Source: a virus (Duplodnaviria > Heunggongvirae > Uroviricota > Caudoviricetes). From it: a DNA stretch of 28,769 nucleotides. Below the pieces are notes generated by a model. It worked only from the letters and a program-made list of their open reading frames with translations. It did not search any database and was not told where the DNA came from. Location of the stretch: the IMG/VR virus record IMGVR_UViG_2529292720_000011; one strand, 5' to 3'. Of the stretch, positions 1 to 9,975 are shown one piece after another. Position numbers and translations under genes: made by a program. The first letter of the stretch is position 1; every line of letters begins with the position of its first letter.

Positions 1-1002
1 TTACCCTCTATTGTCAAAAGGGTTCAATTCAACAGCAGCCTCTAAATGACCTGGAGCAAAATGCGCATAACGCATAGTCATTTTTATATCGCTATGCCCC
101 AGTATTTTTTGCAACACAAGAATATTTCCGCCCCGCATCATAAAATGACTGGCAAACGTGTGACGTAGCACATGAGTTAATTGCCCATCAGGAAGCTCGA
201 TCTTCGCTCTCTTAATTGCAGCGTCAAAAGCCTCATAACATGGTGAAAATAGCGCTCCTCGTTTTTTAGGAAGCATAGCCTGCAATTGAGGTGAAATCGG
301 TACAGTGCGGTTCTTCTTTCCTTTAGTTTTAACAAATGTGATTCGACCGGGCAGTACTTGAGATTGCTTTAATCCTTCTGCTTCACTCCACCGAGCACCA
401 GTCGCAAGCCCAATACGGACAACAACCCCCAAATCTTTATTCCGTGACTCATCACACGCAATCAGAAGGCGTTCAATCTCATCTACATACAGAAACGCCA
501 GTTCCTTTTCTTCCTCACGAAACTTGCGAATACCAGTCAGGGGGTTTTCACCAGACCACTCCCCAAGGCGCTTCAGTTCGGCAAAAACAGCATGTAGATA
601 TGACTGCTCGCGATTAACGGTTGCTTCACTAAGTTTTTTCTTCCCCTTGGGATTCCATTCTCCTGATAGCCTTCTTTCCCGATAAGTAGCAAACATATTT
701 TTGTCAAACTGCGAAGCAAATGGATCTCCCAGCCTGGAACAAATCGCCTCAAGTTTGACTTTGCGCTCTGCACCAGAGGACAAGGTTTTACCGTACATCT
801 CAAACCAACGAGCAATCAACTCAGAAAGACGAGGACCAGAACCATCTTGAAACTCGTCTCCAACTCTACTATTCATTAAACGGCGCTCATAAGAGAGCGC
901 CTCACTTTTTGTCGCAAACTGTTTACGAATGCGTTTTCCCGATGCCCCGTAGGGATAACATTCGCAAAGCCATTTACCTGATGGAATCTTACGAACCGAC
1001 AT
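1..1002 (-). CDS. int: Tyrosine recombinase / phage integrase (P2-186 type)
   Basis: 333-aa ORF with the C-terminal catalytic signature HVLRHTFASHF...LGHSDIKMTMRYAH. It is the last gene of the minus-strand repressor operon, as in P2. The window starts at its stop codon. Confidence 0.95.
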   Translation of the reverse strand: MSVRKIPSGKWLCECYPYGASGKRIRKQFATKSEALSYERRLMNSRVGDEFQDGSGPRLSELIARWFEMYGKTLSSGAERKVKLEAICSRLGDPFASQFDKNMFATYRERRLSGEWNPKGKKKLSEATVNREQSYLHAVFAELKRLGEWSGENPLTGIRKFREEEKELAFLYVDEIERLLIACDESRNKDLGVVVRIGLATGARWSEAEGLKQSQVLPGRITFVKTKGKKNRTVPISPQLQAMLPKKRGALFSPCYEAFDAAIKRAKIELPDGQLTHVLRHTFASHFMMRGGNILVLQKILGHSDIKMTMRYAHFAPGHLEAAVELNPFDNRG

Positions 1003-1007
1003 TTTAG

Positions 1008-1354
1008 TTACTTATCACATAAATCAAATGCAGCCTTAGTGACATCCCCCAGACTCTTTTTTAACCCTGGGGCGGCATCATTATCTAGCCAAAATGGATT
1101 ATTGTTATCTAACGGTAACGCACCAAATGTTTTACCTTTTATTCGAGCCAAACCTGTAAGTGCATATAACTTATTATCGTCAAAATTCATTACATAAGGA
1201 TTACCATCAAGACACTGTAATTGAACCTCATCAGTATTAAATGGCCACACCCCATTGAAACTCTCACGTTCAATGGTTTTAAAAGGCATTGCGACGGCGG
1301 AAAAAGAAAACATAGATAAAAAGTAACTAATAGTTGAACCTTTTTAACTTTCAT
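1008..1354 (-). pseudogene. DUF2511/YebY-like periplasmic protein, signal peptide separated by a 1-nt frameshift
   Basis: ORF 1008..1313 (101 aa) resembles E. coli YebY as I recall it (W.FN..EV.L.C ... Y.L.G ... KKSL ... LC). It has no SD and no signal peptide of its own. A GAGG SD plus ATG at 1354 opens MKVKKVQLLVTF in another frame. One extra base in the A5 run at 1318-1322 would give MKVKKVQLLVTFLSMFSFSAVA|MPFK, a canonical Sec signal. Confidence 0.5.
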
Positions 1355-1383: not shown

Positions 1384-2034
1384 TTACAAATTAAAAAACG
1401 CTCTAGAAATGACACCGCCTACCAACCCCCCTACGCAGATAAAGAATATTATTTCTTTTGGATAAAGTCGGATTAATTCTGAAGCACGAAGTCGGACTTC
1501 TGGTAAGGTCGAACTCTCTGTGTGGCTTGATGCCGATTGTTGCTCTAACCACGACAATGCAGACTGTAACTGAGAACGAGTAAGATCGTTTAAACGTCCT
1601 GTACCGAAATTGATATGGCAATACCGCAGAAGTTTTTGTCGAAGTCCACAGTCTTCACTGTTACGTAGTAATAAACTTACAAGAGCCTTACAGGCATCAT
1701 GATCTTTACATCGCTCAAGCATTGCATGCAGAAAACTCTCCGCTGTTTTATATTGATTTACTGTCATATCATCAATACCAGCTACACCAATCTCCGCATG
1801 TACTTTTTGCCAAATAATAAACGCTTCAGTATTGCTAGCTTCTGCAATAGCAGCAACCAAGCTATTTAGCTCCTTACGCTGAGCCTTAAGCAAAGGGCGA
1901 TCGTCATCATCATTATTCGAAGGGATTGCGATATTGACGGTATGAGAACCATCATATCGCTCTATCTGAATATTCTTTTCGTGAAAATCACGCCCAGCAA
2001 CGCGATTGTTTGAACCGTTTGAGTTGACGGCCAT
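1384..2034 (-). CDS. Tail-anchored membrane protein of unknown function, co-transcribed with the repressor
   Basis: 216-aa ORF with SD GGAGG 4 nt upstream. There is a single C-terminal hydrophobic helix (IIFFICVGGLVGGVISRAFF). The N-terminus GSNNRVAGRDF repeats the C-terminal motif of the upstream repressor. I recognise no catalytic motif. Confidence 0.8.
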   Translation of the reverse strand: MAVNSNGSNNRVAGRDFHEKNIQIERYDGSHTVNIAIPSNNDDDDRPLLKAQRKELNSLVAAIAEASNTEAFIIWQKVHAEIGVAGIDDMTVNQYKTAESFLHAMLERCKDHDACKALVSLLLRNSEDCGLRQKLLRYCHINFGTGRLNDLTRSQLQSALSWLEQQSASSHTESSTLPEVRLRASELIRLYPKEIIFFICVGGLVGGVISRAFFNL

Positions 2035-2049
2035 GTCACCTCCCTACTA

Positions 2050-2454
2050 TCACCTGCCCTTAGTTTCGTTATAGTCACGACCAGCGATACGGTTATTACC
2101 ACCAGAAATATTTAACTCACGTCCTGATGGCTGAGTTTCCTTTTCACTGATCGCACCTTTTAAAGCCCCAATCACCGCGTTTTTCACATCTAACGAAGCT
2201 GCTCGAAAGCGAGTAATCAACTCCTGCTCATCATCGTTATAAGTTTCAGGTGAGTGAATTCCCAACACAACATACTGAACATCAAGGCCAAAACGAGACA
2301 GCGCTGCCAAATACGCAGCATCAGGAAAGCTATCTCCTTTCTCATATCTAAGCTGAGTTAGCTTTTTGACTCCACCAATGTCGCTCATGGCTACTTGACT
2401 AAGTCCCAATCTTTCCCTTTCCTCACGCAACCGCTGACCAATATCATTTTTCAT
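2050..2454 (-). CDS. XRE/Cro-CI family HTH repressor (immunity repressor by position)
   Basis: 134 aa. The N-terminal HTH is IGQRLREERERLGLSQVAMSDIGGVKKLTQLRYEKGDSFPDAAYLAALSRFGLDVQYVVLG. It is divergent from the early operon, like P2 C and 186 cI. The C-terminal tail ends GGNNRIAGRDYNETKGR. Confidence 0.85.
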   Translation of the reverse strand: MKNDIGQRLREERERLGLSQVAMSDIGGVKKLTQLRYEKGDSFPDAAYLAALSRFGLDVQYVVLGIHSPETYNDDEQELITRFRAASLDVKNAVIGALKGAISEKETQPSGRELNISGGNNRIAGRDYNETKGR

Positions 2455-2529
2455 ACAAAAACCTTGACAGGTATCTTTTTTGATACCAAAATGATTTCAC
2501 GAGCTATTAGATGATCACAATATACCACT
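2455..2529. promoter_or_regulatory. Divergent immunity-switch promoter/operator region
   Basis: 75-bp gap between the divergent repressor and early genes. Plus-strand TTGACA (2464-2469), 17-nt spacer, CAAAAT (2487-2492). A perfect dyad GGTATC (2470-2475) T6 GATACC (2482-2487) fills the spacer. A third TATACC half-site lies at 2521-2526. Confidence 0.55.
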
Positions 2530-2736
2530 ATGAAACAAGTTCTTCACGATACCAGATCACGCATTCCGCGTAACACCGCCACAGGTCCAAGACTGGCCCT
2601 TCGGCTGTCCCTCGAGGAGCGAGCCGTCATTGATGAAATGGCAGCTAAAGAACAACGCTCATCCTCTAACATGGCGCGCATGATCTTCCTTCGCGGCCTA
2701 GAACTAACCCAGAAAGAACAAAACAAATCTTCCTGA
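2530..2736 (+). CDS. Ribbon-helix-helix (CopG/Arc-like) small DNA-binding protein, first early gene
   Basis: 68 aa. RLALRLSLEERAVIDEMAAKEQRSSSNMARMIFLRGLE fits the RHH pattern of a beta strand plus two helices. It occupies the Cro/Apl/Cox position. Confidence 0.6.
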   Translation: MKQVLHDTRSRIPRNTATGPRLALRLSLEERAVIDEMAAKEQRSSSNMARMIFLRGLELTQKEQNKSS

Positions 2737-2752
2737 TCAAGAGGCTAGTGGG

Positions 2753-2956
2753 ATGTCAGGTATAACCATCAATATCAATGTGAATGCCCCCTATGTATCC
2801 CTGCAGAAATATGCAGAGATAACAGGTATCCCTCTTAATACATGCAAAAAGATGTTGGCTGACGGTCGAATTATTATCCGCCCCAAACGCGCCAAAATGG
2901 AAAAGCCTGAAGTAAACCTTGTGGCGATGTTAAAAGACGCTTTGACTAACAGCTAA
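2753..2956 (+). CDS. Cox/Apl-like excisionase-type HTH regulator
   Basis: 67 aa. YVSLQKYAEITGIPLNTCKKMLADGRIIIRPK resembles the P2 Cox HTH region (from memory). It is the second gene of the early operon. Confidence 0.55.
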   Translation: MSGITININVNAPYVSLQKYAEITGIPLNTCKKMLADGRIIIRPKRAKMEKPEVNLVAMLKDALTNS

Positions 2957-2977
2957 AACAATGAACAGAGCACCATC

Positions 2978-3328
2978 ATGAAAAAAAACGCTAATAATCC
3001 ATACTCCAAATTTCGTAATGGCGTAGAACGCCATGTACACCACGTCGCTACCAGTGCATCACGTAGTAACAGTCGCTATAACCTTAACGAGACGCACGCA
3101 ACACCGGATGGCCACGCTGTAAAACAAATCGGCGAGCATGCCTGGCTGATTGAGAAAGCTGGAATCGTGGTCCACAAATGCCCACGCAATCCGTTTACCG
3201 GAAACCGCATTTTTGCTCTAAGCAGTGGCGACAATCAGTTCGGGCAGGATTTCACATTATACGAAGCACTTCGCACGGTTGATCGTCTGCTTCGCGGGCA
3301 AAGTTTTATTAAACAGGCTGATTTATAA
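2978..3328 (+). CDS. Hypothetical early protein (116 aa)
   Basis: ORF in a tightly packed early operon. No recognisable motif. Confidence 0.6.
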   Translation: MKKNANNPYSKFRNGVERHVHHVATSASRSNSRYNLNETHATPDGHAVKQIGEHAWLIEKAGIVVHKCPRNPFTGNRIFALSSGDNQFGQDFTLYEALRTVDRLLRGQSFIKQADL

Positions 3329-3338
3329 CAGGTGCTTT

Positions 3339-3626
3339 ATGACCAAAGACCATGCACAAGGTGTATTTATCCGTTTTATTGATTTTCGCGGTGAACTGTT
3401 ATTACGTGCATCCGCTATTGACGGAGTGACTCCGGCGGGTAAAAACGGAGCCGACGAAGCCACTTACGTTTATCTGAACGGCACGCGACTGCTTGTGGAA
3501 CTTCCGTACCAGACCGTACGAGAAATCATTAGCGAAGCTGAAAAGGCACGCCAGGTTAATGGCGATGAACCCTATATCGAAATTATTTGTATGGATTCAG
3601 AAGCTGAAATACAGAAAGCAGATTAA
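3339..3626 (+). CDS. Hypothetical early protein (95 aa)
   Basis: ATG at 3339, 10 nt after the previous stop, in frame with track ORF 3225..3626. The upstream part of that ORF overlaps the preceding gene. Confidence 0.6.
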   Translation: MTKDHAQGVFIRFIDFRGELLLRASAIDGVTPAGKNGADEATYVYLNGTRLLVELPYQTVREIISEAEKARQVNGDEPYIEIICMDSEAEIQKAD

Positions 3627-3634
3627 AGGGCGTT

Positions 3635-3880
3635 GTGATGGGCAAAGAATATAAAACTCTCATTAACAAAGCACTTGAGCGTTTTTATTTTCGCTTAAGT
3701 GCATCAGGCGCTCATGCTGAACGTGCGGCCCGTGACTCATTGACCAGAGCAATCCGAAGTCTGTATGACGTAGCTTTTTACGCTGATGATCTGGATGCAC
3801 TTAACGAACTTTCCGAGCTGATCTGTGCCGCAGAATGCGGGGAACATATTGAACCGTATAAGCTGGGGAATATCGCATGA
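3635..3880 (+). CDS. Hypothetical early protein (about 80 aa)
   Basis: GTG 3635 or ATG 3638 start shortly after the previous stop. The predicted protein is helical and acidic. Confidence 0.6.
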   Translation: MMGKEYKTLINKALERFYFRLSASGAHAERAARDSLTRAIRSLYDVAFYADDLDALNELSELICAAECGEHIEPYKLGNIA

Positions 3881-3990
3881 GTATATTTATCTCATGGCTT
3901 GTTCTGATTATTTCGGTGGCCTGCGCTATTGGGATTATGCGAATTATTCATTCAATAAAAAAGATTGAACGCTTTTTCACTGGCGAATAA
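3877..3990 (+). CDS. Small single-pass membrane peptide (37 aa), not in the ORF track
   Basis: Its ATG overlaps the upstream stop (ATGA at 3877-3880). The product is MSIFISWLVLIISVACAIGIMRIIHSIKKIERFFTGE, a hydrophobic helix followed by a basic tail. Confidence 0.4.
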   Translation: MSIFISWLVLIISVACAIGIMRIIHSIKKIERFFTGE

Positions 3991-4076
3991 CAGAACAAAT
4001 AAAACCACAGATTAAATAAGAAAATGTAAAAACAATCCGCATTCGCGGAGGTATTCGCACACGCCAAGGAGGCGTA

Positions 4077-4280
4077 ATGGCAATTAAGCATTTTCCTGTC
4101 GTTCGTTTTACCTCCAGAGGGCGGGAATACGAAGTCGACGAACGCCTGATTACCACAATCGACAAACACCGTTCAGAAAAGGATGCACATCACATCTATC
4201 TCACTGACGGCACTTACTTCTGCGCCACGAATGTGGTGCGGGTGAACCTTATCCGACAGGTACAGGAGTCACGCAGATGA
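4077..4280 (+). CDS. Hypothetical early protein (67 aa)
   Basis: Strong SD AAGGAGG 6 nt upstream of the ATG. The stop overlaps the next start. Confidence 0.7.
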   Translation: MAIKHFPVVRFTSRGREYEVDERLITTIDKHRSEKDAHHIYLTDGTYFCATNVVRVNLIRQVQESRR

Positions 4281-4522
4281 CCATTCTGGACTATATTGCC
4301 GCCAATCCGGGGTGTAGCGGTGGAGAAATCGCCGCAGCACTGAATACCCCAACCACAGCCATTAATGCGGAGTTACGCCGACTCTGGCGCAGCGGTTCAG
4401 TCATAAGAAAAGAGCGCAAAACAGGCGGTCGCTTTTCTTACCAGATAAACCCGATGCCGTTCGGGTGTGGCAATCCACTTACCAACATGTTTAACCAGCT
4501 ACTGAAGGAAGCCAGAGCATGA
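4277..4522 (+). CDS. Winged-helix DNA-binding protein (81 aa)
   Basis: ILDYIAANPGCSGGEIAAALNTPTTAINAELRRLWRSGSVIRKERK fits an ArsR/MarR-like wHTH pattern. It is translationally coupled on both sides. Confidence 0.65.
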   Translation: MTILDYIAANPGCSGGEIAAALNTPTTAINAELRRLWRSGSVIRKERKTGGRFSYQINPMPFGCGNPLTNMFNQLLKEARA

Positions 4523-4818
4523 GCGCCATCAACCACAAGGAATTACGCGAACTGGCGACTGACCTGCAACGAATGGCAACGCCTCAAAAATTACTGGCGT
4601 TTCGCGCAATGCTCTCGCCGTCTGCTGTGCTGGCACTGCTGGATGAGCTGGAGCACGCCAGAACCACACCTCTCGCCATTCGCCTGACGCTCCGTCATGA
4701 AATCGAGGATTTCTGCGCGACGTTGGAGGCGCCAGGCGAACCGGAAACGCCGGAAGCAATACAGCAAGAGCTGCTGCAACGCATTGACAAGGTTTTTGAT
4801 TTTTTTCTGAACCACTAA
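4519..4818 (+). CDS. Hypothetical early protein (99 aa), Ead/Ea22-like flavour
   Basis: Coupled start (ATGA). The motif SPSAVLALLDELE is reminiscent of the Ead/Ea22-like family. The assignment is weak. Confidence 0.55.
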   Translation: MSAINHKELRELATDLQRMATPQKLLAFRAMLSPSAVLALLDELEHARTTPLAIRLTLRHEIEDFCATLEAPGEPETPEAIQQELLQRIDKVFDFFLNH

Positions 4819-4831
4819 GAAACCAGAACAT

Positions 4832-4969
4832 GCACACACAAAAAAACCGCTTGCCATGCCGCAATCAGTCAGGTTACATTTCCGCTGCACCTCATAAAAC
4901 GGGTGCCGGGTTTCGCAGCCCGCTGACAAACGTAGCGCACAACCGCGCCAGCGGTTTTTTTGTGCGTAC
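4832..4969. repeat. 138-bp element closed by a 20-nt inverted repeat, with U7-tailed hairpins on both strands
   Basis: GCACACACAAAAAAACCGCT (4832-4851) matches the reverse complement of AGCGGTTTTTTTGTGCGTAC (4950-4969) at 18/20 positions, with a perfect 13-nt core. The local hairpin AACCGC-GCCA-GCGGTT plus T7 (4941-4961) looks like an intrinsic terminator. Confidence 0.5.
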
Positions 4970-5002
4970 TGTATCGCCACGTCTTTTTCGCATCTGAATT
5001 AT

Positions 5003-5078
5003 GGTGGGGCGTACGGGGCCGACTTCGGTCGGGCCGGGTTCTGCGTTTGCCGGTACTGCGAACCTCGTACGTCTCGCC
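5003..5078 (+). ncRNA. Candidate 76-nt Y-shaped structured RNA
   Basis: Hand fold. A 13-bp closing helix pairs 5003-5015 with 5066-5078 (10 Watson-Crick pairs, 3 G.U). Hairpin 5017-5035 has a C(UUCG)G tetraloop at 5023-5028. Hairpin 5037-5064 has an 11-nt loop. The junction is three-way with single-nucleotide linkers. It sits in a 320-bp non-coding gap. Confidence 0.35.
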
Positions 5079-5140
5079 ACCCACAGTTTCGCAGCTCTGG
5101 ATGGTGAGGTTTCAAAACTTACACACGTAGAGGCCACACC

Positions 5141-5371
5141 ATGGCAAACCGCAAACAGCACCGCGCTATCGCGGAGCGTCGTCACATCCAGACTGAAATC
5201 AACCGCAGACTTTCCCGCGCATCACGCGTCGCGCAAATCATGCACATCAATATGCTGCATGAGCGTAGCTGCGAACTTTCAAACCTCTATTCATCCGCTG
5301 TTTTCAGTTATCTGGCGGATGATCTGCGCGAGCTTCAGCAGCTCATCCAGCAGCAAAACAAACTCCATTAA
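5141..5371 (+). CDS. Hypothetical early protein (76 aa, basic N-terminus)
   Basis: SD GAGG 8 nt upstream of the ATG. The product is a helical basic protein. Confidence 0.65.
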   Translation: MANRKQHRAIAERRHIQTEINRRLSRASRVAQIMHINMLHERSCELSNLYSSAVFSYLADDLRELQQLIQQQNKLH

Positions 5372-5443
5372 TTCCTGTTCCGGGCCTTTCCTGCACCTTG
5401 CGGCGGGAGGCCTTCGCACATCTGTAACAAGAGGATTGCCGCA

Positions 5444-5809
5444 ATGATTCTCGCCAACGACTTTCTTGAATACCTGCTCAACACAGAACGTGATCTTGCC
5501 GTTCGCGTGCGTGAACGTTATGACATGTACCTGAAATCCCTGCCTGTACCGCAGCTCGCTGACGGAAAGATTGTTATTGATGGTCGCTACATGATTGACA
5601 GCCACGAGGGAAATTACAGGCTTTACCGCATTGAAGGTGGCACCCCGTCCGTTATTGGCATTTACCAGCGCCCATCCTCTGCAATCGTCGATGTGATTGC
5701 CGACAGCATCCGCATCACACATCGCCATGCCGACACAGAAGACACCGTGCTGGAAATTCAGCGGCTGGCTACAGTCTGCCGCGACACCCTGAATGGCATA
5801 ACGAAGTAA
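5444..5809 (+). CDS. Hypothetical early protein (121 aa)
   Basis: ORF immediately upstream of gpA. No motif recognised. Confidence 0.65.
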   Translation: MILANDFLEYLLNTERDLAVRVRERYDMYLKSLPVPQLADGKIVIDGRYMIDSHEGNYRLYRIEGGTPSVIGIYQRPSSAIVDVIADSIRITHRHADTEDTVLEIQRLATVCRDTLNGITK

Positions 5810-5815
5810 ATCACT

Positions 5816-8623
5816 ATGACGGCAGAGTACATCAGGGACTGGCAGCAACCGCGCCACGCAGTGGGGCGTGAAGGAACGGGGATCCCCGCTCCTGAATCCG
5901 CGCTTTCCTCCTGGCTGGATGCCTACCGGGCAGAGAACGAGCGCTGCCAGGAAATGGCTGATGCGGCGTTCTCCGCCACGCCGCTGGGCAACCTGATTAA
6001 TAAAAGCCTGGACGCACAGGAAAAACAGGACAAAACCATCACACTGGCAGGAGACGCCAGAAAGCAGGTACGCGGCGCGGTGGATGAAGCCATGGCCTCG
6101 CTGCGCCTGCTGCCATCCTATCTGCGCGATCCGCTTATTCGCCACCTCTCCTTCCTGCGCAAAAAACAGGAATCTGACCGCCAGAAAGGTAAAAAGAACC
6201 AGCAGGCTGAACGCTACGCGCGCGGGACCCTGCGCAAAATATTCGAACGTCTGGATCGCACTGACGGGCGCTGGCTGACACCGGGTTATCGCTCCCTTGC
6301 CGGGCGCGAACGCCTGGACGATTTGCTTTCCCTGCCGCAGCTCAACAAGCACCAGATACAGACGCTGGCCACCATGACGGCGGCGATGTTCAGCAGCACC
6401 TTCGAAACACTCTGCGATGGCTTTGGTGCCAGAGATGGCGAGCTGACCATGGATGTAATGTTGAAGGCTTACCGGATGCTGGCCCGTATCGCATTACGCC
6501 TGCACATCATGCCGCCACATTACGAAGCCCTGAACAAGAGCGATCCGGATACGGAACTGTTACCGGGCGCAATCCTTCGCCTGACCTGTGCGGAATGGTG
6601 GAAACGCAAATTGTGGCTGTTACGTTGCGAGTGGAGAGAAGAACAACTCCGCGCCGCCTGTCTGGTTTCCAGAAAAACATCACCCTATCTGAGCCAGGAC
6701 GCGTTAAGCGAGTTTCGCGCACAGCGCGAGAAAACACGCGATTTCCTGAAAAGTTTCATGCTGGAAAACGAAGACGGGTTCACGATTGATCTCGAGACAG
6801 TGTATTACGCGGGAGTAAGTAACCCGGTTCACCGTAAGGCAGAAATGATGGCCACCATGAAGGGGCTGGAACTTCTGGCCGAAGCCCGTGGCGACAAAGC
6901 GGTGTTTCTGACTGTCACCTGCCCGTCAAAATACCACGCCACAACAGAGAACGGTCATCCGAATCCCAAATGGAACGGGGCCACCATGCGCGACTCCAGC
7001 GATTACCTGGTTAACACGTTTTTTGCGGCGGTCCGCAAGAAACTGAACCGCGACGGCCTGCGCTGGTATGGCATCCGCACGGTGGAGCCTCACCATGACG
7101 GCACCGTGCACTGGCATATGATGGTCTTTGCACATCCGGACGAGATTGAAACCATCGTGTCCCACGTCTGCGATATTGCCATTCAGGAAGACCGCCACGA
7201 GCTGGGCGATGACATAACTCCGCGTTTTAAGGCGGAGTACGTAGACGGCTCAAAAGGCACACCAACCAGCTACATCGCCACCTACATCGGAAAGAACCTG
7301 GACAGCCGCGCCGTGGATGGCATCGACCAGAAAACGGGCAAGCCACGCGTTGACCACGAAACCGGAAAATCAATGGCCGAGAGCGTGGAACGCGCCATCG
7401 GCTGGGCGCGCCTTCACCGGGTCCGCCAGTTCCAGTTCTTTGGCATCCCCTCCCGTCAGGTGTGGCGTGAACTCCGCCGCCTTGCCAGCCAGATGGCACG
7501 CAACCCGGAAGGCCCGCAACGGCTGAAGGATGACGCAATGGATGCGGTACTCGCTGCCGCTGATGCAGGATGTTTTGCCACCTACATAGAGAAACAGGGC
7601 GGCGTACTTGTTCCACGCAAAGACTACCTGATTCGCACCGCCTACGACCTCGCCGATGAGCTGAACGATTACGGCGAACAGAGCGTACAGATTTACGGGA
7701 TCTGGTCACCACTCATCGGGGAATCCTCCCGTGTGTGCACGCATCCGGATAACTGGAAGCTGGTAAGACGCAAACCGGAAGCGGAAGACAGCGCCCGCGA
7801 AAATGGTTTTGACCTTCAGGGCGGCCCTGCCGCCCCTTGGACTCGTGGCAATAACTGTCCCCGTGTACAGGAAACAGGCAACAGCGGGACAGAACAGTCG
7901 AAAGAACGGCCAGCACCGTGGCCGCAGCTTCCTGACGGCGTTGAAGTGAACGAATGGATGCGCTCACTGAAACGGCACGAACGCCGGGCGCTGATGCGTT
8001 CGCTTCGTGACAAACAGGTAAAAAACAGCAGTGATGAAATGCAGAGCTGGACACAGAGCCGCAAACAGCAGCGGCCTTTGCCTGATAACCACGAATTACT
8101 CGCTAAAGAATGGCGGGAGTCTGCCGAATCTCTCGGCCTGCATATCGGTGAACAGCAGATGCAGCACCTGCTACGGGGCGGCAGCCTGTACGTTGACGGC
8201 AGCATCATTGCACCGCAGGGATATGAAATTGTACGCAAACCGGATACCCGCCCGGACAGCCGAATCACGCAGCTCTGGCAGCACCTGAGCCGTAATCACG
8301 GCGTAAGCAGCACGGAGATCCGCCATAACCCGGTCGCCAGCTATCTGGCACAGCTGGGGGCATCAGACCCCGAAGCCGCCGCACGCCTGGCATCCGCACT
8401 TCAGCAGGATCAGAACACCATGAAAACACCCGTTACCGTGCTTTCTGACATGCTGCGCGCCATCCGCGACGCAGAGCACGCACAGAGAATCAGTGAAACC
8501 ACTGAACGCGCCAGCCGCAAAGCAGACCTGCTGCAGGGTGGCCTGACCAGTGGAAACAAAAAACAGACAGAAACGGGATCCACAAATCCCGTAAATGAGC
8601 AAAAAACGCGCCGCGATATATGA
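5816..8623 (+). CDS. A: Replication initiation endonuclease, P2 gpA family (HUH rolling-circle initiator)
   Basis: 935 aa. It has the HUH-type motif VEPHHDGTVHWHMMVF and the catalytic Tyr motif SYIATYIGKN, typical of P2/186 A. The C-terminal ~230 aa is a charged, low-complexity extension beyond P2 A, which I recall as ~761 aa. Confidence 0.9.
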   Translation: MTAEYIRDWQQPRHAVGREGTGIPAPESALSSWLDAYRAENERCQEMADAAFSATPLGNLINKSLDAQEKQDKTITLAGDARKQVRGAVDEAMASLRLLPSYLRDPLIRHLSFLRKKQESDRQKGKKNQQAERYARGTLRKIFERLDRTDGRWLTPGYRSLAGRERLDDLLSLPQLNKHQIQTLATMTAAMFSSTFETLCDGFGARDGELTMDVMLKAYRMLARIALRLHIMPPHYEALNKSDPDTELLPGAILRLTCAEWWKRKLWLLRCEWREEQLRAACLVSRKTSPYLSQDALSEFRAQREKTRDFLKSFMLENEDGFTIDLETVYYAGVSNPVHRKAEMMATMKGLELLAEARGDKAVFLTVTCPSKYHATTENGHPNPKWNGATMRDSSDYLVNTFFAAVRKKLNRDGLRWYGIRTVEPHHDGTVHWHMMVFAHPDEIETIVSHVCDIAIQEDRHELGDDITPRFKAEYVDGSKGTPTSYIATYIGKNLDSRAVDGIDQKTGKPRVDHETGKSMAESVERAIGWARLHRVRQFQFFGIPSRQVWRELRRLASQMARNPEGPQRLKDDAMDAVLAAADAGCFATYIEKQGGVLVPRKDYLIRTAYDLADELNDYGEQSVQIYGIWSPLIGESSRVCTHPDNWKLVRRKPEAEDSARENGFDLQGGPAAPWTRGNNCPRVQETGNSGTEQSKERPAPWPQLPDGVEVNEWMRSLKRHERRALMRSLRDKQVKNSSDEMQSWTQSRKQQRPLPDNHELLAKEWRESAESLGLHIGEQQMQHLLRGGSLYVDGSIIAPQGYEIVRKPDTRPDSRITQLWQHLSRNHGVSSTEIRHNPVASYLAQLGASDPEAAARLASALQQDQNTMKTPVTVLSDMLRAIRDAEHAQRISETTERASRKADLLQGGLTSGNKKQTETGSTNPVNEQKTRRDI

Positions 8624-8699: not shown

Positions 8700-9659
8700 A
8701 TGAAAATTTGTATCGACGACGGCTCCACCAACATCAAGCTGGCATGGACTGAGAACGGCGAACGCCGCAACGCCATCAGCCCGAACAGCTTCAAGTCGGA
8801 ATGGTCTGCGCCGTTCGGTGGCACGCATCCCGCGAACTACATGCTTGATGGCGTGCGCTATGGCTTTGATCCGGTCAGCGATCGTTTTGTCCAGACGACT
8901 GACACGCAATACCAGTACAGCGATGTGAATGTAATCGCCATTCATCACGCGCTGGTCAAATCAGGCATCACGCCACAGGAGGTGGATGTGGTTGTCACCC
9001 TGCCACTGAGCGAGTATTTCGACACAAACGCACAGCCGGACATGGCCAACATCAACCGCAAAAAAGCGAACGTCATGCGCCCGGTGGAGTACCAGAACGG
9101 CGAAGCATTCACTATCCGTAACGTACGGGTTATGCCTGAATCCATTCCGGCTGGCTTTAAGGCACTGGCTGACATGAGTCCGTTTGAATCCCTGCTGATT
9201 GTGGATTTGGGCGGAACCACGCTGGATGTGGCAAAGGTTCAGGGGCAGCTGGCAGGTATCAGCCAGGTGTTTTGCGATCCAAACGTAGGCGTTTCCCTGA
9301 TGGCTGATGCCGTGCTGTCGGTGATGGCCACTAACGGTATGCGTACCAGTCACCACATCGCCAATACCATTATTGAGCACCGTCACGATGAAGCCTGGCT
9401 GCGCCAGCACATTCACAATGACGCGCATTACAACAGCCTGATGGCGGTTATTCGTGAAAAGGAGGAGACACTGAAACAACGAGTGATCCGCGCGCTGGCG
9501 GGTTTTTCCGGTTACGGGCGGGTGATGGTTGTCGGTGGAGGGGCGGAGATTGTGGCACCCGCTATCCGCGAAGCCTGCGGAGTTAATGCGACTTTCATCG
9601 CGGACGGGGTGCCACAGTTTGCTCTGGTTAATGGGCTGTACGCAATGAACAAGGAGTAA
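8700..9659 (+). CDS. parM: Actin-like plasmid segregation ATPase ParM (StbA family)
   Basis: 319 aa, colinear with plasmid R1 ParM as I recall it. Shared blocks: IDDGSTNIKL, ISPNSFK.EW, QYSDVNV.A.HHAL, VMPESIPAG, DSLLI.DLGGTTLD, VMV.GGGAE, LVNG.Y. Confidence 0.9.
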   Translation: MKICIDDGSTNIKLAWTENGERRNAISPNSFKSEWSAPFGGTHPANYMLDGVRYGFDPVSDRFVQTTDTQYQYSDVNVIAIHHALVKSGITPQEVDVVVTLPLSEYFDTNAQPDMANINRKKANVMRPVEYQNGEAFTIRNVRVMPESIPAGFKALADMSPFESLLIVDLGGTTLDVAKVQGQLAGISQVFCDPNVGVSLMADAVLSVMATNGMRTSHHIANTIIEHRHDEAWLRQHIHNDAHYNSLMAVIREKEETLKQRVIRALAGFSGYGRVMVVGGGAEIVAPAIREACGVNATFIADGVPQFALVNGLYAMNKE

Positions 9660-9663
9660 ACCA

Positions 9664-9975
9664 ATGACGACACCAACCAGAAGAATAAGTTTCTATCTGA
9701 AGCCAGCTGCCGTCAAGAACGAAGGAGAAGCATGCGCATGGCTGGACAGCCTTACACCAGAAGCCCGCAAAAGCGGCCAACGCGTGGCTTTTCTGGCCGG
9801 GCTGGCACTTCTGAAGACGAATCCGGCAGAGGCTTACCGACTGGCCGCATGGGCTGATGATGAGATGTTACCTGTGACACAAATCAGCTCAAAAAAGTTT
9901 GAAGCACAGTCTGCACCAGTGGCTAAGATAACCAGCCAGATGGCTGGGAATATCCGGGCGTTATTTCCTGGGTAA
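9664..9975 (+). CDS. parR: ParR-like centromere-binding adaptor
   Basis: 103 aa. RRISFYLKP...ACAWLDSLTPEARKSGQRVAFLAGLALLKTNP parallels R1 ParR RRTIAFKLNP...LDSIPQGERSRLNRAALTAGLALYRQDP (from memory). SD AAGGAG. It directly follows parM. Confidence 0.75.
   Translation: MTTPTRRISFYLKPAAVKNEGEACAWLDSLTPEARKSGQRVAFLAGLALLKTNPAEAYRLAAWADDEMLPVTQISSKKFEAQSAPVAKITSQMAGNIRALFPG

Follow-up and report, generated by a model that had tools for sequence, protein, structure and literature searches.

The 28,769-nucleotide (nt) stretch of viral DNA analyzed here (IMG/VR record IMGVR_UViG_2529292720_000011, Caudoviricetes; "the window" hereafter denotes this whole stretch) is the left part of a P2-like (Xuanwuvirus/P88-type) Escherichia coli prophage. 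Its early genes, which include Arc-like and Cox-like genes and several DUF genes (encoding domains of unknown function), are packed tightly everywhere except at 4819-5140. An earlier note, made from the sequence without database searches, had drawn attention to this non-coding gap, and the gap is real: an open reading frame (ORF) of 99 amino acids (aa) stops at 4818 and the next plausible gene begins at 5141. Within it, the same note had folded a GC-rich RNA (65% GC) by hand at 5003-5078 and had suggested a likeness to the P1/P7 C4 or P4 CI immunity RNAs. The Rfam scan that it called for, run over the whole window at the gathering threshold, settles the family question: there are exactly two matches, adjacent to each other, namely C4 antisense RNA (RF01695), above its threshold, and isrK. 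The C4 match is full length (80.4 bits), and the same model matches P1 c4 and P4 CI; judged by its sequence, the 5003-5078 RNA belongs, as a typical member, to the already known C4/CI family of phage immunity antisense RNAs. The features of the gap and of the gene that follows it are listed here.

4851-4880, plus strand: promoter-like signal (TTGCCA, 18 nt, TACATT) from a consensus scan, with a predicted start at about 4887
4887-4961, plus strand: leader of the isrK/seqA/c4-a1b1 type (RF01394 over its full length, 69.6 bits, threshold 50)
4887-4906: leader hairpin 1
4907-4922: leader hairpin 2, followed by a linker
4912-4918, plus strand: target a1, UUCGCAG, in the loop of leader hairpin 2; exact 7-nt complement of CUGCGAA (5056-5062) in a′
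4927-4935, plus strand: target b1, CAAACGUAG, in the single-stranded leader linker; 9 base pairs (bp) with 5041-5049 of the b′ loop
4941-4961, plus strand: terminator hairpin with U-run (terminator scan), closing the leader
4997-5084, plus strand: C4 antisense RNA (RF01695, 80.4 bits against a threshold of 45, E-value 1.7e-14, model positions 1-87 of 87)
5003-5081, plus strand: predicted mature C4 RNA of about 79 nt, aligned to the annotated 77-nt P1 c4 (5′ GGUGGGG ... GCCACC 3′)
5033-5037 and 5050-5054: arm 2 of the family fold, GCCGG paired with CCGGU, closing a 12-nt loop and followed by an 8-nt single strand
5038-5049, plus strand: recognition loop b′ of arm 2, GUUCUGCGUUUG; hypervariable, with 12 versions among the 81 loci, each with matching b1 and b2
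5055-5062, plus strand: recognition strand a′, ACUGCGAA, between arm 2 and the closing stem; 5 versions among the 81 loci, each with matching a1 and a2
5088-5094, plus strand: target a2, UUCGCAG, in the leader of the 76-aa gene; exact complement of CUGCGAA (5056-5062) in a′
5099-5109, plus strand: leader segment GGAUGGUGAGG, just after a2; complementary to 5072-5081, the 3′ strand of the closing stem in C4
5125-5132, plus strand: target b2, ACGUAGAG, overlapping the Shine-Dalgarno sequence AGAGG (5129-5133); pairs with 5039-5046 of the loop
5141-5371, plus strand: P4-epsilon-like gene of 76 aa (Pfam PF25738, Derepression family, E-value 6e-8, 32.8 bits against a cutoff of 27)

The C4 model matches the annotated 77-nt c4 gene of P1 at 68.8 bits, with RF03163 ('a1, b1 targets of C4') as the upstream element, and the CI RNA region of P4 at 74.9 bits, where the isrK model matches the seqA region (60.8 bits); in three Stx2-type lambdoid phages both models match, upstream of anti-repressor genes. 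In the window the isrK match stops 35 nt ahead of the start of the Rfam C4 match at 4997, and the same arrangement is found in P4 and in the Stx phages, where the isrK family lies upstream of C4, this place being taken by RF03163 (c4-a1b1) in P1. The distance from the promoter-like hexamers to the leader is the same as for the annotated P1 promoter P1c4/P51b and for the promoter-like hexamers of P4 and the three Stx-type modules, and promoter activity at 4851-4880 appears probable from the sequence. The RNA had first been regarded as lying inside the early operon. This location stands, but the RNA is not a mere part of that operon: as a promoter-like signal of its own and a leader of the isrK/seqA type precede it, we regard it as belonging to a self-contained cassette.

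The suspicion of the earlier note that such an RNA acts on downstream targets is supported, as bipartite targets are present and covary with the RNA. It had seen no obvious complementarity between a loop and the ribosome-binding site of the next gene, and this is wrong: 5039-5046 of the loop pairs with b2 over the Shine-Dalgarno sequence, which sits seven nt ahead of the 76-aa gene's ATG (5141). The b′-b2 pairing of other types reaches back to 5122. For comparison we used 80 IMG/VR loci encoding a 76-aa protein with 91-100% identity, which together with the window give 81 loci and 38 distinct 266-nt sequences. In all 80 of them isrK and C4 lie directly upstream of the 76-aa gene. Variation among the 81 loci falls nearly entirely within six patches, a1, b1, b′, a′, a2 and b2, and these patches change together; in each of the five junction types, for example, a1 is altered jointly with a′ and a2. 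The 12 loop and 5 junction versions occur in 14 combinations, and the targets are matched in every one of them.

Counted over the 38 distinct sequences, b′-b2 is paired in 95.2% of cells with 6 of 11 pairs changed on both sides, a′-a2 in 90.5% (4 of 8 pairs), b′-b1 in 100% (7 of 9) and a′-a1 in 90.5% (4 of 8). Taken as a set, a2/b2 is paired in 93.2% of cells, and changes on both sides occur in 130 cells as against 34.7 ± 4.3 in shuffles (0/500), while the a1/b1 set is paired in 95.5% of cells with 11 of 17 pairs compensatory. The observed target covariation is reached by none of the 500 shuffles, and when the partner is slid by 1-3 columns pairing falls to 27-57% (39-52% for the a2/b2 set). 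Because a1/b1 covariation is equally strict, the leader is to be considered a genuine partner of C4. Cognate b′-b2 duplexes have a mean energy of -13.4 kcal/mol and non-cognate ones of -6.0 kcal/mol. From this covariation, together with the difference between cognate and non-cognate duplex energies, it is likely that C4 represses the 76-aa gene in trans and sets immunity specificity. In the diversity of the a and b patches we see the heteroimmunity principle of P1/P7, here at a larger scale.

The stretch 5003-5078 folds much better than expected by chance, at a minimum free energy (MFE) of -43.2 kcal/mol (z = -3.67), with none of 200 dinucleotide-shuffled sequences as stable. The 13-bp helix drawn between 5003-5015 and 5066-5078 exists and belongs to a closing stem of 17 bp (5002-5018/5063-5079). 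This stem is fully paired (100% of cells) in the 38 distinct relatives and is paired in all nine diverged homologues, with many compensatory changes. The diverged set consists of nine C4 homologues, P1 and P4 included, taken as Rfam-aligned rows because a MAFFT alignment misplaced the P1 gaps. Of the first arm, the core 5019-5023/5028-5032 with its C(UUCG)G loop is real and covaries, as in locus L050, where the stem reads CCAGC/GCUGG around an AUCA loop; the tetraloop itself, called hyper-stable in the note, is not conserved: UUCG is the usual sequence, but AUCA, GAAA, ACAA or UCCG take its place in some relatives. The second arm as first drawn (5037-5064, 8 bp, loop UUUGCCGGUAC) had to be given up. 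It is the arm of the single-sequence MFE fold, in which loop and junction strand are paired with each other; its pairing amounts to only 73% in close relatives, its inner pairs form in 3-6 of the 9 diverged homologues, and it is broken without compensation in relatives of both sets.

The family fold has instead the short arm 2 listed above, which is paired in 9/9 homologues and shows a compensatory C-G to U-A exchange in P1, and it leaves the a′ strand single-stranded. All three C4 helices are 100% paired among the 38 close relatives. In the window all 27 family-fold pairs form, and 26 of the 27 form in every diverged homologue, the sole failure being one arm-1 pair that falls on the P1 alignment gap. 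Compensatory variation among the nine diverged homologues affects most pairs of the closing stem and of arm 1, and arm 2 shows one change, that of P1. Motifs of a processing type are also found at the site, with U at position -1, GGU from +1 to +3 and ACC at the 3′ end past the stem, as in P1. For P1/P7, cleavage by RNase P at the GGU motif has been reported (Hartmann, 1995, as cited in PMC5320573), and P1 C4 is described as an RNase P-processed RNA whose b′ occludes the ribosome-binding site and whose a′ confers specificity (PMC5320573). By analogy, RNase P would cleave ahead of G5003.

The gene whose ribosome-binding site overlaps b2 encodes a protein that falls in Pfam's Derepression family and shares 30% identity with P4 epsilon (BLASTP, E-value 2e-9). 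Epsilon renders the helper phage's repressor inactive (PMC8628076), and from the homology the 76-aa protein is probably an anti-repressor. A sequence search of solved structures gave no match for the 76-aa protein, nor for the 134-aa helix-turn-helix (HTH) repressor of the prophage, so that no link to P2 C can be drawn. The 76-aa gene is followed by a gene for an unrelated 121-aa protein, which has no similarity to P4 orf151, and then by the P2-type replication gene A.

With its C4 family structure, its covarying targets, the overlap of one of these with a ribosome-binding site and an epsilon homologue as the controlled gene, the segment 4851-5371 is, with high probability, a self-contained RNA-gated anti-immunity cassette of the P1 immI/P4 immunity type within the early operon of a P2-like prophage. 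Transcription would initiate from the promoter at 4851-4880 at about 4887, and most transcripts would end at the terminator 4941-4961, giving an IsrK/seqA-like RNA of about 75 nt that bears a1 and b1. Read-through transcripts would contain the C4 structure, from which RNase P, cutting before G5003, and 3′ trimming would release a stable RNA of about 79 nt (5003-5081). The exposed loop b′ (5038-5049) and strand a′ (5055-5062) of this RNA may then pair with b2 (5125-5132) and a2 (5088-5094). Since b2 overlaps the Shine-Dalgarno sequence, ribosomes are proposed to be kept off the epsilon-like gene, and a translational block by C4 at this gene is what the P1 system would lead one to expect. By analogy with P1 and P4, Rho would probably then terminate the untranslated RNA, thus lowering expression of the downstream 121-aa gene and of gene A. 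The leader sequences a1 and b1 would be rival partners of b′ and a′, acting in cis as part of the precursor or in trans on the short RNA, and so tune or relieve repression. The centroid fold of 4887-5150 shows a cis conformer in which a1/b1 are paired to b′/a′; from this conformer and the precedent of IsrK in Gifsy-1 we take the leader to be a competitor through which C4 action is tuned, and its role as a decoy may be proposed on the strength of that analogy. The a and b sequences would constitute a specificity code, and a differently coded phage would be expected to escape the C4 RNA of the resident.

Several observations weigh against this mechanism. The b′-b2 duplex of the window is among the weakest of all types (8 bp including 2 G-U pairs, -10.1 kcal/mol). 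The 12-nt loop has many equal or better chance complements elsewhere in the window, coding regions included (RNAduplex and run-length scans), and a two-part search for a followed by b with G-U pairs allowed returns about seven matches in shuffled sequence; as single-sequence complement searches are thus not specific, the case for the targets rests on position and covariation. The MFE fold, in which a′ and b′ are partly hidden, exceeds the family fold in stability by 0.9 kcal/mol (-44.8 against -43.9 kcal/mol). The failure of the HTH repressor, in that search of solved structures, to match P2 C or any other entry also belongs here, and polarity on gene A is suggested purely by analogy. Finally, window positions 4528-5328 are missing from the collinear Xuanwuvirus phage 520873 (L086, at its 2480-2500), which is 92% identical over window 2038-4527 and 84% over 5329-6497. 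The gap takes out the 99-aa gene, the promoter-like signal, isrK, C4 and most of the epsilon-like gene, of which just the last ~43 nt are kept, and phage 520873 looks like a deletion derivative. Since it lacks 4528-5328, the cassette is accessory and dispensable for a complete phage genome.

An alternative that may be part of the same picture, differing only in which output matters most, is that the RNA works chiefly in the P4 manner, causing premature termination of transcription and silencing the 121-aa gene and gene A (5816-8623), control of the epsilon-like gene being secondary. The Rfam C4 and isrK models do match the P4 CI RNA and seqA regions, the P4 order of CI RNA, epsilon, orf151 and replication gene alpha parallels that of C4, epsilon-like gene, 121-aa gene and gene A, and an intrinsic terminator lies within the early operon upstream of gene A; P4 CI RNA has moreover been described as acting by transcription termination via seqA and seqC (PMC4825925). 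Yet b2 sits on the Shine-Dalgarno sequence exactly as in P1, where a translational block is the primary event, the 121-aa protein is unrelated to P4 orf151, the phage has in addition a protein repressor and a Cox-type switch for its early promoter, and phage 520873 retains gene A without the cassette. On balance we hold this emphasis to be possible though rather unlikely.

Far less probable is that ORF 5001-5447 (148 codons, its AUG lying at the 5′ edge of C4) is the counterpart of Gifsy-1 orf45, its translation driving the downstream genes and the RNA structure being incidental. The ORF is open in 78 of the 81 related loci, its stop overlaps the start of the 121-aa gene (ATGA, 5444-5447), the AUG is conserved in the Rfam C4 consensus, and in Gifsy-1 mutations of the orf45 start codons or an early stop lowered IsrK-dependent anrP translation (PMC4825925). 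On the other side, no Shine-Dalgarno sequence precedes AUG 5001, and the conserved AUGG is accounted for by the closing stem and the RNase P site. The ORF covers the entire 76-aa gene out of frame, and it is the latter that has Pfam and PHROG support. The hypervariable patches would impose radical amino acid changes and yet show perfectly compensated base pairs, and in L047 and L074 indels in the recognition loop shorten the ORF to 16 and 64 codons with all RNA pairings intact; the earlier judgment that this ORF is implausible thus stands, and it is probably no gene. That we might be dealing with a chance GC-rich hairpin, a tRNA-like remnant or an RNA folded exactly as first drawn, in each case without antisense function, has next to no probability left. 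The sequence is certainly GC-rich, and the MFE fold reproduces the outline first drawn and is marginally the most stable; however, the C4 match has the E-value given above, the second arm as first drawn does not survive in relatives, which offer no compensating changes, four external sites covary with the recognition patches, and ARAGORN finds no tRNA or tmRNA in the window. A tRNA or tRNA-like gene was rejected as ARAGORN recognized no cloverleaf there, and a chance structure or tRNA-like element is ruled out by the Rfam match, the covariation of patches with targets and the pair counts in homologues.

Among the closest known systems is the immI operon of P1/P7 (c4, RF01695, with leader RF03163). 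P1 c4 and the window RNA share the Rfam family, the three-helix fold and the ends 5′ GGUGGGG and 3′ GCCACC. They also share the order of promoter, leader (a1 in the loop of a hairpin, b1 immediately behind), C4, a2, b2 and start codon. In the P1 record c4 is annotated with a1 and b1 on its upstream side and a2 and b2 on its downstream side, b2 lying on the icd ribosome-binding site; in the P1 sequence a′ is the junction strand (CUGUCAA, against UUGACAG) and b′ the arm-2 loop. The b2 sequences ahead of icd and of the 76-aa gene occupy the same position, in the same GAGGCC context over the Shine-Dalgarno sequence, and in both systems a′, b′ and their targets define heteroimmune types. The differences concern the controlled gene (a P4-epsilon-like protein of 76 aa in the window, icd-ant1/ant2 in P1), the host element (an integrating P2-like phage, as opposed to a plasmid prophage of P1 type), the leader (which scores as isrK with a strong terminator in the window and as c4-a1b1 in P1) and the promoter, which in the window, unlike that of P1, has no evident C1-type operator. 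In the window family both the a and b patches are, compared with P1, highly diversified and freely combined (14 combinations in 81 loci). A P1/P7 immI operon proper was considered and rejected, given that the downstream gene is of the PF25738 family, followed by the 121-aa gene and gene A and not by icd/ant1/ant2; the working is immI-like.

In P4, GUGAGAA of the a1 type and UUCACAGG of the b1 type match the CI junction and loop, as in the scheme for the window. Epsilon, to which the 76-aa protein is 30% identical, is part of the same operon, and a replication gene lies further downstream in both, P2-type gene A in the window and the alpha primase gene in P4. Between CI and epsilon, however, P4 has about 245 nt including a small ORF, whereas in the window the epsilon-like gene is fused directly to b2 and the Shine-Dalgarno sequence. 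Because the element, unlike P4, is a full phage of the P2-like kind that brings its own protein repressor, the RNA is unlikely to be its sole immunity factor. The immunity region of a P4-type satellite (alpha primase, sid, psu, delta) was also rejected as an identification, the window having instead Cox-like, Arc-like, HTH repressor and Phage_GPA genes.

The leader has a counterpart in the isrK - orf45/STnc1160 - anrP locus of Salmonella Gifsy-1, where, as is predicted for the window, an isrK-family leader has its own promoter and a leaky terminator (PMC4825925). A stable processed RNA complementary to IsrK is found downstream; its equivalence to C4 rests on the description of STnc1160 given in that work. 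IsrK and the processed STnc1160 control translation of the anti-repressor, and a parallel with P4 seqA/CI was drawn by the authors (Hershko-Shalev et al., 2016, PMC4825925). Anti-repressor translation is off by default and the long transcript has two alternative conformations, which may be compared with the cis pairing in the centroid fold of the window; the short IsrK relieves the translationally silent conformation and so switches the anti-repressor on (PMC4825925). In that work the stretch equivalent to C4 is read as the translated orf45, activation by the short IsrK being stressed, and AnrP belongs to another protein family than the 76-aa protein and acts through the antiterminator AntQ. 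No Gifsy-1 record was among the phage matches listed. Stx2-converting and other lambdoid phages and N15 have isrK and C4 in the same order, a leader of the a2/b2 type and an anti-repressor gene; the latter is of the Ant/Rha type and encodes several hundred residues, compared with 76 aa in the window, and DNA identity of these modules to the window is about 66-73% among the matches listed. As for C4 in P88-type phages, nothing specific was found in the published work searched.

One further pairing concerns the leader of the 76-aa gene. The segment 5099-5109 and the stem strand 5072-5081 would form a hairpin that displays a2 (5088-5094) in its loop and is incompatible with the folded C4; it is present in the centroid fold of 4887-5150. 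The pairing covaries in divergent modules, as GCUAUCGCC/GGCGAUAGC in P4 and CCUGCCACC/GGUAGCAGG in P1, and cognate duplexes of this type have energies of -11.8 to -17.2 kcal/mol, against -3.7 to -9.4 kcal/mol for P4 and P1 with non-cognate leader partners. Among the window and the three Stx-type modules themselves there is no such discrimination, because their sequences at these positions are nearly identical. A 14-bp GC-rich hairpin at 5382-5413, between the epsilon-like and 121-aa genes, was also noticed; it lacks a U-tail and does not stand out from shuffles (z = -0.64), and UUCGCAC, which comes next, differs from the a-site sequence by one base.

How far types are insulated from each other can be illustrated with the window type and that of locus L022, which differ in two loop bases (5043-5044) and in one base per b target (4932 and 5127). 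The predicted cross-reaction is asymmetric, at -8.3 kcal/mol for L022 C4 on the b2 of the window and -4.7 kcal/mol for window C4 on the b2 of L022. Such a pair is co-resident in one genome (IMG taxon 2547132279, loci L004 and L022), and three of the four same-genome IMG/VR pairs differ in a/b type, the fourth being identical (possibly an assembly duplication). We put forward, tentatively and with doubt as to the whole, that P2-like (P88/Xuanwuvirus) prophages captured a cassette of the P4/P1 type in which C4 gates an epsilon-type anti-repressor directly and whose patches diversified and recombined into orthogonal barcodes (at least 12 loop and 5 junction types), making it a device of kin recognition and warfare. 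If so, it would act among co-infecting P2-like phages and P4 satellites: the resident RNA would silence the anti-repressor of an incomer with the same code, an incomer with a different code would express it and derepress the resident prophage, and the short IsrK-like RNA would serve as a built-in sponge. The coupling of C4 to a P4-epsilon-like protein hints that P2-like phages of the helper type share an anti-repressor weapon with their satellite.

The C4 RNA itself is real but ordinary, a member of a curated known family working in a known way. Undescribed to our knowledge are the direct fusion of C4 to an epsilon-type gene in a helper-type P2-like phage and the breadth of combinatorial specificity, and both are extensions of established principles. 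The 14 loop/junction combinations amount to a ready collection of orthogonal RNA-RNA recognition pairs and to a clean case of specificity evolving by compensatory change. An RNA folded by hand is now securely placed in a textbook family, with its fold corrected and its targets found, at a site that constitutes an annotation gap. The 266-nt module has a megablast match in 1,281 of 5,426 complete E. coli genomes; in the RefSeq genome of enterotoxigenic E. coli (ETEC) H10407, where the module is 99.2% identical (NC_017633, 2136102-2136367), the RNA site is blank, and GenBank record LC710661 annotates 'isrK Hfq binding RNA' and 'C4 antisense RNA' at the homologous place. Note also that in the records of Stx2a_1447 and ASU11 'antirepressor' coding sequences span isrK and C4 (L081, 1146-2297; L083, 1446-2108), that in Stx2a_1447 the equivalent of ORF 5001-5447 is in frame with the anti-repressor, and that the P4 RefSeq record lays a 137-aa 'cI gene product' over the CI RNA (L085, 8168-8584).

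The wider setting of the cassette within the prophage is given by the following genes.

1-1002, minus strand: integrase gene
1008-1313, minus strand: gene for a DUF2511 protein
1384-2034, minus strand: gene for a 216-aa protein
2050-2454, minus strand: HTH repressor gene, 134 aa
5816-8623: P2-type replication gene A (Phage_GPA, E-value 7e-129)
8700-9659: ParM/StbA actin-like segregation gene (PF06406 and PF21523, E-value 3e-82), directly 3′ of gene A
9664-9975: Plasmid_stab_B gene, after the ParM/StbA gene

The last two genes are a plasmid-type partition system within an integrating, integrase-bearing P2-like prophage. The interval between integrase and repressor is, in P2-like phages, the usual site of lysogenic-conversion or defence cargo. 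In the window it is occupied by the DUF2511 gene and by that of the 216-aa protein, which has a hydrophobic C-terminus, belongs to phrog_5825 and weakly matches a PHROG annotated as 'membrane protein'.

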